A stretch of DNA of 40,969 nt from Sphingomonas sp. GTDB taxonomy: Bacteria > Pseudomonadota > Alphaproteobacteria > Sphingomonadales > Sphingomonadaceae. Within the stretch, counting starts at the first letter, position 1. Every line of letters begins with the position of its first letter. The notes beneath the pieces were generated by a model. That model worked only from the letters and a program-made list of their open reading frames with translations, searched no databases and had not been told where the DNA came from. The DNA lies in NCBI GenBank assembly GCA_030824725.1, contig JAPJRE010000001.1:1-40969 (forward strand), in the 5' to 3' direction. The position numbers and the translations under genes are program-made. This document shows, one piece after another, positions 23,814 through 32,854 of the stretch.

Positions 23814-24267
23814 ATCGGCGCCGACCGGGGCCCAGGCGCATTACCGGGCGCTCGAATCGCTCTACGCCGCCGCCCCGATCAACCAGCTCTTCCCCTCGGT
23901 GCTCGAGATTCCCGAGGCGGGAATCGCGCGGATCCGCTTCGACGTGGACTCGCGCTATTTCCACGCCGCCGGGGCGACGCACGGCACCAGCTACTTCAAG
24001 ATGCTCGACGATGCCGCCTTCTATGCGGCGAACAGCCTGGTCACCGATCGCTTCCTGCTCACCACCGCCTTCAACCTGCTGCTGACCAGGCCGCTGCCTG
24101 AAGGGCCGGTGATCGCCGAGGGCCGCTGGGTGAGCGGCCAGCGCCGGGTGTTCGTCGCCGAGGCGCGGCTGATCGACGCGCAGGGCGAGGAAGCCGCGCG
24201 GGGCACAGGCACCTTCATGCGCTCGCGGATCGCGCTCGCCACCCTGCCCGGCTACCGCACCGCATGA
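23800..24267 (+). CDS. PaaI family thioesterase
   Basis: FHAAGATHGTSYFKMLDDAAFYAA hot-dog fold motif; GTG start at 23800. Confidence 0.85.
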   Translation: MTPPESAPTGAQAHYRALESLYAAAPINQLFPSVLEIPEAGIARIRFDVDSRYFHAAGATHGTSYFKMLDDAAFYAANSLVTDRFLLTTAFNLLLTRPLPEGPVIAEGRWVSGQRRVFVAEARLIDAQGEEAARGTGTFMRSRIALATLPGYRTA

Positions 24268-24605
24268 CCCCGCGCCTGACCAGCGCGATGCTGGTGAGCG
24301 CGCTCGTGCGGCGGGCCGATGCCGCCGGCGGATCGGCGATGGTGCTGGCCAGGGGCGACGCGACTTCGGGTGCGATCCTGCTGCTTCTCCTCGAGCGCGG
24401 CGCCAACCCGCGCTTCGTTGAAGGGGGGATCGGGCCCCATGGCGAACGTGCCCTGCTCCCCTCCGGCCCCAAGGCGCTGGCGGACGAGGCGGAGGCGAGC
24501 GCCTATTGGCGACGGCGGCGGGAGCGCGACGGCGATCTATGGGTCGTTGAACTGGATATCGCAGGCGGCGAACGGTTCGCCGCTGAAACGATGAACCTTT
24601 GTTGA
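24264..24605 (+). CDS. DUF1491 family protein
   Basis: RLTSAMLVSALVRR, RGDATSGAI and RRRERDGDLWVVELD; ATGA overlap. Confidence 0.85.
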   Translation: MTPRLTSAMLVSALVRRADAAGGSAMVLARGDATSGAILLLLLERGANPRFVEGGIGPHGERALLPSGPKALADEAEASAYWRRRRERDGDLWVVELDIAGGERFAAETMNLC

Positions 24606-24650
24606 CAGTCCCGCCCTCGCCCGCGAAAGGGTTCACCACGTTCATTCGCG

Positions 24651-24754
24651 TTGTGCCGTTCGGGGTGTGAAGTCGATCGGTTACGCAGTCGGGGGGTAAG
24701 TCCGACGGTCCAGTCTCCTCCGGAGCAGCGACCGATCGCACGCCAACCGCACAA
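24651..24754 (+). ncRNA. Candidate structured cis-regulatory RNA in the cell wall hydrolase leader (family not recognised)
   Basis: Nested pairings 24651-24660/24745-24754, 24664-24669/24739-24744, 24674-24682/24730-24738, 24688-24693/24701-24706 and 24715-24718/24722-24725. Confidence 0.55.
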
Positions 24755-24766
24755 TACAGATTTGAA

Positions 24767-25417
24767 ATGAAGTTTCTGCCACGGGCTGCGACTTTCGCAG
24801 CTGTGACTTTTTGCGCTGGCGCACTTGCGAATGCAGCCACGCTCAACCTGAGCCCGCTCCCGCAGCAGGAAGCGAAGACTCAGGCGACGGTGCAGCCCGC
24901 ACCGGCACAGGTTTCCAACGTCCTTGCTTCCCAGCAGGTTCCCGCGCCCCAGGCCGCGGTCGAGCAGCAGGGGGCCGATGCCGAGGACGATGCTCCCGAA
25001 TATGCCACCCTATCCGACGCGGTCGCCGCGCAGGAAGACATCGCCGCGCTCGAAGAGGATCGCGAGCTCCGCTGCCTCGCCACCGGCGTCTATTTCGAAG
25101 CCCGCAGCGAGCCGCTGTCGGGCCAGCTCGCGGTCGCCGACGTGATCCTCAACCGCAGCACCTCGGGCCGCTTTCCCGGTTCGGTCTGCTCGGTGGTGAC
25201 CCAGAAGGGCCAGTTCTCGTTCGTCCGCAAGGGCAAGCTGCCGACCCCCCCGGCCAACGCCCAGTGGCGCCGTGCGCTCGCCGTGGCACAGGTCGCCCGC
25301 AAGAATCTGTGGGAAAGCCCGGCCGGCGACGCGCTCTATTTCCATGCGCGCTACGTCAACGGCGCACAGGGCCGCGCCTCGGTCGCGACCGTGGGGAACC
25401 ACATCTTCTATCGCTGA
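24767..25417 (+). CDS. Cell wall hydrolase (SleB/Hydrolase_2 family)
   Basis: Signal peptide, Q/A/P-rich linker, CLATGVYFEARSEP, GQLAVA, CSVVTQKGQFSF, ALYFHA and GNHIFY. Confidence 0.92.
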   Translation: MKFLPRAATFAAVTFCAGALANAATLNLSPLPQQEAKTQATVQPAPAQVSNVLASQQVPAPQAAVEQQGADAEDDAPEYATLSDAVAAQEDIAALEEDRELRCLATGVYFEARSEPLSGQLAVADVILNRSTSGRFPGSVCSVVTQKGQFSFVRKGKLPTPPANAQWRRALAVAQVARKNLWESPAGDALYFHARYVNGAQGRASVATVGNHIFYR

Positions 25418-25440: not shown

Positions 25441-25472
25441 GAAAAGCCGCCGAAGCGATTCGGCGGCTTTTC
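25441..25472. terminator. Intrinsic terminator after the cell wall hydrolase (symmetric)
   Basis: GAAAAGCCGCCGAA-gcga-TTCGGCGGCTTTTC, a perfect 14-bp stem. Confidence 0.88.
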
Positions 25473-25475
25473 TGT

Positions 25476-25490
25476 GTTCGTGGAATGTTC
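25476..25490 (+). promoter_or_regulatory. Alphaproteobacterial LexA (SOS) box
   Basis: GTTC-gtggaat-GTTC (GTTC-N7-GTTC) 12 bp before the mmcB ATG; a third GTTC at 25494-25497. Confidence 0.85.
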
Positions 25491-32712: not shown

Positions 32713-32735
32713 AAAAACGTGCCGCACCGCACATA

Positions 32736-32805
32736 GGGGGTGCCTTTCAGGCATCCTCTCCTAAAACTTTCCAAGGCCGCCCTTTTTGAGGCGGCCCTTT
32801 TTTTT
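32736..32805 (+). ncRNA. Small RNA, SuhB/MmgR (alpha-r8)-like
   Basis: 5' hairpin GGGGGTGCCT-ttc-AGGCATCCTC; core ATCCTCTCCTAAAACTTT; terminator GGCCGCC-N8-GGCGGCC-C-T8. The architecture resembles the recalled suhB/mmgR family. Confidence 0.7.
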
Positions 32806-32854
32806 GCCTCCGCCGTTCTTAGCTTTCGGGCCTACCGCCACGAAGGAACCCAGA

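Follow-up and report, generated by a model that had tools for sequence, protein, structure and literature searches.

The window analyzed here comprises 40,969 nt of a Sphingomonas sp. genome (contig JAPJRE010000001.1), and all positions count from its first nucleotide. Between 22702 and 25417, it harbors hpf, ptsN, a thioesterase gene, a DUF1491 gene, and a gene encoding a SleB-like cell-wall hydrolase, in that order; an MmcB-like gene comes after the hydrolase gene (Table 1). The hydrolase matches the spore cortex-lytic enzyme structures 4f55 and 4fet in the PDB (E about 1e-12), aligns with them at a Glu that we take to be catalytic, and has an N terminus judged by eye to resemble a signal peptide. 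Its nearest named relatives are proteins of Sphingomonas species with 95 to 96% identity. This adjacency is uncommon elsewhere in the order: of 20 regions taken from beyond DUF1491 in its other families, only 1 has the hydrolase gene next. Downstream of the hydrolase gene lies a strong hairpin with an A run before it and a T run after it, likely a bidirectional terminator. Two further observations concern neighboring parts of the window: a GTTC-N7-GTTC sequence at 25476 to 25490, ahead of the MmcB-like gene, resembles the alphaproteobacterial LexA box, and the suhB/mmgR small RNA (RF00519) is found at 32735 to 32811 with 51.4 bits.

Table 1. Features of the hydrolase locus and its leader, in window coordinates
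Feature	Position	Strand	Remarks
DUF1491 gene	24264..24605	+	ORF; Pfam PF07372, E 3e-24; its stop codon overlaps the -35 hexamer
-35 hexamer TTGACA, inferred hydrolase promoter	24602..24607	+	Family TTGAC mostly 43 to 47 nt before P1
Weak -10-like element	24624..24630	+	5 of 7 matches to family consensus; spacer to -35 one base longer here
P1	24648..24686	+	Basal helix GCG/CGC, internal loop with conserved G, inner helix, terminal loop
Long stem of the initial annotation, alternative fold	24651..24754	+	Excludes P1/P2; extends 4 nt into the spacer; not covarying
Linker A between P1 and P2	24687..24687	+	In 115/115 sequences (part of the anchoring motif)
P2	24688..24750	+	G-C pair, bulged A/U, CGG/CCG, purine-purine mismatch, covarying helix, variable apex
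A/U-rich spacer, 16 nt, without Shine-Dalgarno sequence	24751..24766	+	15 to 18 nt in all 165 parsed loci
SleB-like cell-wall hydrolase gene (Hydrolase_2), 216 aa	24767..25417	+	Pfam PF07486, E 3e-23
Conserved coding-region hairpin	24785..24801	+	+19 to +35 from AUG; covarying
Likely intrinsic terminator hairpin, end of hydrolase transcript	25441..25472		Seen directly in the sequence; absent from the terminator scan listing

An initial annotation of this DNA had pointed to a TTGACA hexamer with a poor -10 element ahead of a hydrolase AUG that lacks a Shine-Dalgarno (SD) sequence. The hexamer and the SD-less AUG are present, and the -10 is poor by our analysis as well: a promoter scan of the leader called no promoter, and the element at the expected place matches the family -10-like consensus, which occupies offsets 21 to 27 from the -35, only in part. 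TTGAC is found at this place in 125 loci, and its TGA is the DUF1491 stop codon in only 71 of them; the element is thus not merely a stop codon. These features predict that transcription would start near 24637 to 24639, about 10 nt before the structured motif described below; taken together, the position of TTGAC, the -10-like consensus, and the limited coincidence with the stop codon argue that this motif probably fills the entire 5′ UTR of the hydrolase gene. RNA-library contigs from relatives span the leader and the ORF, beginning at 24650, 24632, and 24684, and were given no weight since such contigs reveal neither start, strand, nor level. In the Allosphingosinicella loci (L056–L070), a conserved block of about 18 bases lies just upstream of the promoter and is a possible regulator site.

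The initial annotation further proposed that the leader forms a 24-bp interrupted stem capped by a three-way junction. All of the complementary segments that it named are found in the sequence where it placed them, and the long stem is the minimum free energy (MFE) fold of this strain, where it beats a fold constrained to the conserved core by about 8 kcal/mol; predicted pair probabilities are 0.94 to 0.99 in the terminal segment, about 0.55 in GGUGUG, and 0.54 to 0.99 in the inner segment. The junction as drawn is not predicted: its first hairpin has a pair probability of about 0.03, and the structure as drawn has an energy of -40.0 kcal/mol versus -50.0 kcal/mol for the MFE fold. The folding z-score is -2.6 on a hand-picked segment (24648–24756) and +0.6 on 24602 to 24780; folding energy alone is weak evidence here, and the predicted outer stem lies modestly above chance. 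On a 24-sequence alignment (A3), the stem pairs in 51% of cells, a level that between 78 and 423 of 500 shuffles equal under the different measures used. Among 82 sequences of the genus, complementarity is 86% and 90% in the two outer segments, which show 0 and 12 two-sided cells, respectively; the inner segment pairs in 58%, and tree parsimony places 0 to 1 compensatory events at each of three pairs of the terminal stem. We therefore reject the stem as a conserved fold; a functional unit made of the stem and three-way junction is not supported. Of the 82 genus sequences, 23 have the conserved core in their MFE fold and 24 have the outer stem, with a median gap of 2.4 kcal/mol. A stem that pairs no better than shuffles and is about as frequent as the core in predicted folds is better read as a competing structure than as a conserved unit; it may form in part of the genus, possibly as an off state.

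What is conserved is a different fold consisting of two adjacent helices, P1 and P2, separated by a linker A. RNAalifold predicts this fold unaided from 24 diverse sequences, with both sides changed at 7 of 14 pairs. It pairs in 86.5% of cells of the 24-sequence alignment, a level matched by 0 to 1 of 500 shuffles, and slid controls give 25 to 49%. In 85 model-aligned matches, the fold pairs in 92.5% of cells, a figure from an alignment that leans to the model. For covariation statistics, 10 unanchored and 12 misanchored loci were dropped and the remainder was thinned to 113 sequences. By parsimony on the tree, four pairs of P2 underwent 21, 15, 11, and 9 two-sided events and one pair of P1 underwent 7; under a tree-aware null of our own, only two pairs reach E ≤0.05, and 8 of the top 12 pairs are pairs of the model. 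Pair B11:C-7 is G-U 22 times versus A-C once in the 113 sequences, which supports the plus-strand assignment of the initial annotation. In divergent members inspected by eye, the P1 basal helix is swapped for GAG/CUC, ACG/CGU, GCA/UGC, or GGU/ACC, and the base of P2 is compensated as CAG/CUG in three loci (L021, L055, and L122). Covariation in orthologs, a check that the initial annotation had suggested, is found for P1/P2 and not for the long stem. On these comparative grounds, we conclude that the leader before the hydrolase gene is a real folded RNA, conserved across the sphingomonad family.

Near-invariant bases cluster at the P1/P2 junction, in the bulge, and in the internal loop, a pattern partly selected by anchoring. 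The mismatch beyond the P2 base is G-A in most sequences and A-G in some, and a few divergent members carry one extra base before the linker. P2 varies in length from about 50 to 110 nt with a conserved core sequence, the spacing of the conserved blocks differs by tens of bases, and the alignment contains indels of all lengths. In this strain, the P2 apex contains the second small hairpin of the initial annotation (24715–24725); in long-P2 members (L010, L025, L026, L137, and L172), a small apical hairpin is common, with a recurring AACGC. Four related variants, all GNRA-like, account for the P1 terminal loop (24665–24670), which is conserved within the genus, in 81 of 82 sequences, and the closing stem of this loop covaries; a tertiary contact by it is possible. 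Pseudoknots that would join the 3′ end to either the internal or the terminal loop of P1 were considered and rejected, as they show no covariation. In predicted ensembles, the two core helices prevail together in only 14 of 113 homologs; the median cost is 4.5 kcal/mol, and this low predicted stability may reflect the energy model only.

To follow the motif across genomes, we used a covariance model (R1), which was limited to 24 mostly well-aligned sequences because P1 is misregistered in two MAFFT alignments (A1 and A2) and which under-scores long-P2 members. The hydrolase itself is matched in 199 of 201 family genomes, and 210 loci were examined (the 30 best, 100 more of the listed best matches, and 80 named loci). 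DUF1491 lies upstream in 154 of these, with the exact central motif in 132 of the 154. A relaxed motif combined with a pairing test is positive in 151 of 156 sphingomonad orthologous loci, namely the 154 with upstream DUF1491 and two more family loci; one locus that failed this test (L051) nevertheless scores 71.7 bits, and in the other four (L162, L192, L209, and L210) the motif is absent and appears lost. One of these four, L210, carries an SD-like run ahead of the start codon. Of 120 genus genomes, 118 have exactly one R1 match, and this genome has one copy of the motif. Parsing succeeded for 90 of 96 genus loci, and BLAST places 88 of these 90 ahead of the hydrolase. Among loci without upstream DUF1491, mostly from Allosphingosinicella, the motif is kept in 14 of 15 and so travels with the hydrolase. 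It consistently lies ahead of this one kind of gene and shares its strand. A metagenome scan blind to genes gave more than 119 pattern matches, of which 80 were examined; 13 of the 14 matches with at least 30 bits precede the hydrolase, and the ORF after the 14th is cut by the contig end. A metagenome match with 24.9 bits (L278) was rejected, since it lies inside a long open frame, and 51 pattern matches in viral contigs reach at best 20.4 bits, none before a hydrolase.

Beyond the orthologous loci, nothing was found at E <0.7 in 60 loci (20 post-DUF1491 regions and 21 hydrolase loci from other families, and 19 paralogs), and no motif at E <3 in 39 more distant hydrolase loci; several of the other-family hydrolase genes that have no motif show SD-like purine runs, as judged by eye. 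A class-wide R1 search found 0 matches in 150 other genomes and is weak evidence of absence, because R1 also missed a motif-bearing genome (G097). No Rfam 15 family matches the leader at the gathering threshold, whether the window, the region, or 12 homolog loci are compared, and at E up to 10 the region returns nothing but a chance miRNA model. The initial annotation had suggested a possibly undescribed cis-regulatory RNA for the hydrolase gene; the Rfam comparison, the homolog loci, and the genus genomes support a conserved RNA of this kind that no catalog lists, with a fold other than the one drawn.

The distance from the end of P2 to the AUG is 15 to 18 nt in 165 of 165 parsed loci and 16 to 17 nt in 158 of them. 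Our parser demanded a spacer of 15 to 18 nt; only 5 of 156 family loci failed it, and the range is therefore not an artifact. Strong pairing to the anti-SD is found in 4 of 113 family leaders and 0 of 90 genus leaders, versus 75 of the 161 genes of this genome that have unambiguous starts. Beyond the AUG, the hairpin at +19 retains its four core pairs in 71 to 75 of 75 genus sequences. It outperforms synonymous controls in 69 of the 75 sequences of the genus and in 89 of the 113 of the family, and 10 two-sided changes map to it on the genus tree; those on either side of pair +20/+34 are both amino acid replacements. The end of P2 and this hairpin thus place the AUG in an open window of about 34 nt, close to the footprint of the 30S subunit. 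The spacer tends to stay unpaired: compared with shuffled spacers, those of the family show more pairing in 53 of 113 sequences and less in 58 of 113, and the real spacer gives a lower MFE than shuffled spacers in 36 of 113 family and 37 of 82 genus sequences. By this measure no family-wide anti-aptamer was found, and a scan found no terminator within the leader. A competing fold is predicted in part of the genus. In Caulobacter, according to the accessible text of 10.1101/2022.10.10.510831, start-site accessibility governs SD-less initiation.

The leading models agree that the leader controls translation initiation, which we consider quite probable. Our preferred reading, to which we give about even odds, is that it forms an effector-responsive translational gate on the SleB-like hydrolase. 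The mRNA would begin about 10 nt before P1, and P1 and P2 fold side by side, as their covariation shows. Their junction, which takes in the last P2 pairs 16 to 17 nt before the SD-less AUG, would be the binding site for a small molecule or protein effector; a site there is favored because the invariant bases cluster at it and because the two helices dominate the predicted ensemble in so few homologs. The bound effector would stabilize P1/P2, a fold of marginal stability, so that the window stays open, and when the effector is absent the RNA would slip to competing folds, such as the long stem, that narrow the window. We favor such an ON switch by about 60:40 over a steric OFF mechanism, and the output in either case would be the dose of an exported, peptidoglycan-cleaving enzyme. 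A classic switch is at odds with spacers that show no selection for pairing to the leader, and since only one gene family is associated with the motif, gene context offers no clue to the ligand. An extension that we regard as rather speculative is that the structure replaces the SD: the junction would dock the 30S subunit 16 to 17 nt upstream of the start, the +19 hairpin would close the window, and a cell-wall or second-messenger signal would gate docking. Were this true, both the riboswitch class and its type of expression platform would be new.

The main rival to the gate is constitutive ribosome positioning, in which the junction would bind the 30S subunit or a ribosomal protein and define the start codon together with the +19 hairpin, while nothing is sensed. 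This model accounts for the geometry as well as the effector model does: the spacer length is fixed though the helices vary, the SD is depleted, the start is bracketed, the spacer tends to avoid pairing, and several motif-less hydrolase genes of other families have the purine runs noted above. We nonetheless hold it only tentatively, because a general initiation aid might spread, whereas the motif occurs as a single copy in one gene lineage, and because the invariant bulge and internal-loop bases fit an effector pocket equally well. A role in mRNA stability or processing (5′ protection, a nuclease or small RNA site) or in transcription pausing would suit a structure that starts about 10 nt from the predicted 5′ end and whose distance to the -35 is constant, but it leaves the fixed spacer, the SD depletion, and the +19 hairpin unexplained, and no terminator was found within the leader; we consider it unlikely. 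The near-equal energies of the two folds in the genus would also be expected of a physical sensor, in which temperature or ionic strength shifts P1/P2 against competing folds with no specific ligand. The accessible text of PMC4274413 reports that a SleB gene of S. wittichii is up under solute and matric stress; neither this gene nor Swit_3463 could be tied to the hydrolase ortholog of this locus. As the junction bases are invariant in sequence, there is no SD to melt, and the competing fold is not conserved family-wide, we judge this quite unlikely.

The remaining two explanations carry little weight. The model of the initial annotation, an aptamer formed by the three-way junction on its long stem and possibly binding a cyclic dinucleotide such as c-di-AMP, draws on the MFE fold of this strain and on the high complementarity of two of its three segments within the genus. 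The 0 and 12 two-sided cells of those segments, the weaker third segment, the shuffle-like pairing family-wide, the improbable junction hairpin, and the lack of an Rfam match, a comparison that it had itself suggested, make it very improbable. Its c-di-AMP analogy fares no better: diadenylate cyclase (PF02457) was detected in 0 of 61 family genomes, and a positive control was detected in 11 of 14. c-di-AMP is therefore an unlikely effector, and any ligand of this leader would be some other signal from the cell wall. Finally, short invariant blocks near the promoter and an upstream ATG in 90 of 113 leaders could suggest a DNA-level element with transcription-factor sites or a conserved small ORF. 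Compensatory changes and G-U wobbles on one strand, block spacing that varies by tens of bases, and indels of all lengths weigh against both, and by our estimate the upstream ATG count is about the chance expectation; such an element is scarcely credible.

Judged from sequence comparison, the leader apparently represents an undescribed cis-regulatory RNA family of sphingomonads with an unusual bracketed, SD-less start. The motif was not found in the accessible text of the motif-discovery literature, including PMC8632094, PMC11109978, PMC5737381, PMC2864571, and bioRxiv 10.64898/2026.10.21.760802, whose supplementary lists may hold it. Several orphan RNAs precede cell-wall genes without a known ligand, and here a family-wide RNA motif sits on a potentially lethal enzyme. 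The 16- to 17-nt spacer, the missing SD, and the +19 hairpin make a compact test case for the choice and regulation of SD-less starts in alphaproteobacteria, and the natural compensatory variants point to informative mutants.

With riboswitch classes, the leader shares a covarying structure, conserved junction, bulge, and loop bases, and association with one kind of gene; with SD-independent docking leaders, it shares a fixed distance to an SD-less start codon. RNA thermometers such as ROSE and fourU have an SD paired in a weak helix, whereas a strong SD is absent from 109 of 113 family leaders and no Rfam thermometer family matches. The c-di-AMP riboswitch has a large, multi-helix fold, which is absent from the sphingomonad leader, and its covariance model gives no match here. 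The accessible text of PMC9960051 describes this riboswitch (ydaO/yuaA) as controlling cell-wall enzymes in Actinobacteria, and the likeness to our leader lies in this kind of target. Closer in kind are the orphan candidates lysM-Actino, lysM-Prevotella, lysM-TM7, and M23, which precede cell-wall genes and for which the authors saw no c-di-AMP binding, as stated in the accessible text of PMC5737381. These are likewise conserved, structured 5′ leaders on peptidoglycan-degrading genes; as far as that text goes, they differ in the enzymes involved and, for the lysM motifs, in the phyla named. The odc1 motif, tested from Sphingomonas echinoides, is alphaproteobacterial and acts on translation initiation according to the accessible text of PMC8632094. 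It shares with the hydrolase leader the setting in an alphaproteobacterial 5′ leader and a role in initiation that is only proposed for the latter; odc1 differs in its pseudoknot, sequestered ribosome-binding site, UUG starts, conserved upstream ORF, and ornithine decarboxylase gene, features that do not appear to apply to the hydrolase leader. Structured initiation regions that work independently of an SD include the E. coli rpsA leader, the rpsO entrapment operator, and viral IRES elements that position the start, in each of which a structure at a set distance from the start codon acts at the small subunit. The sphingomonad leader resembles these by description, and it differs in serving an exported hydrolase and in having its start bracketed by a coding-region hairpin.
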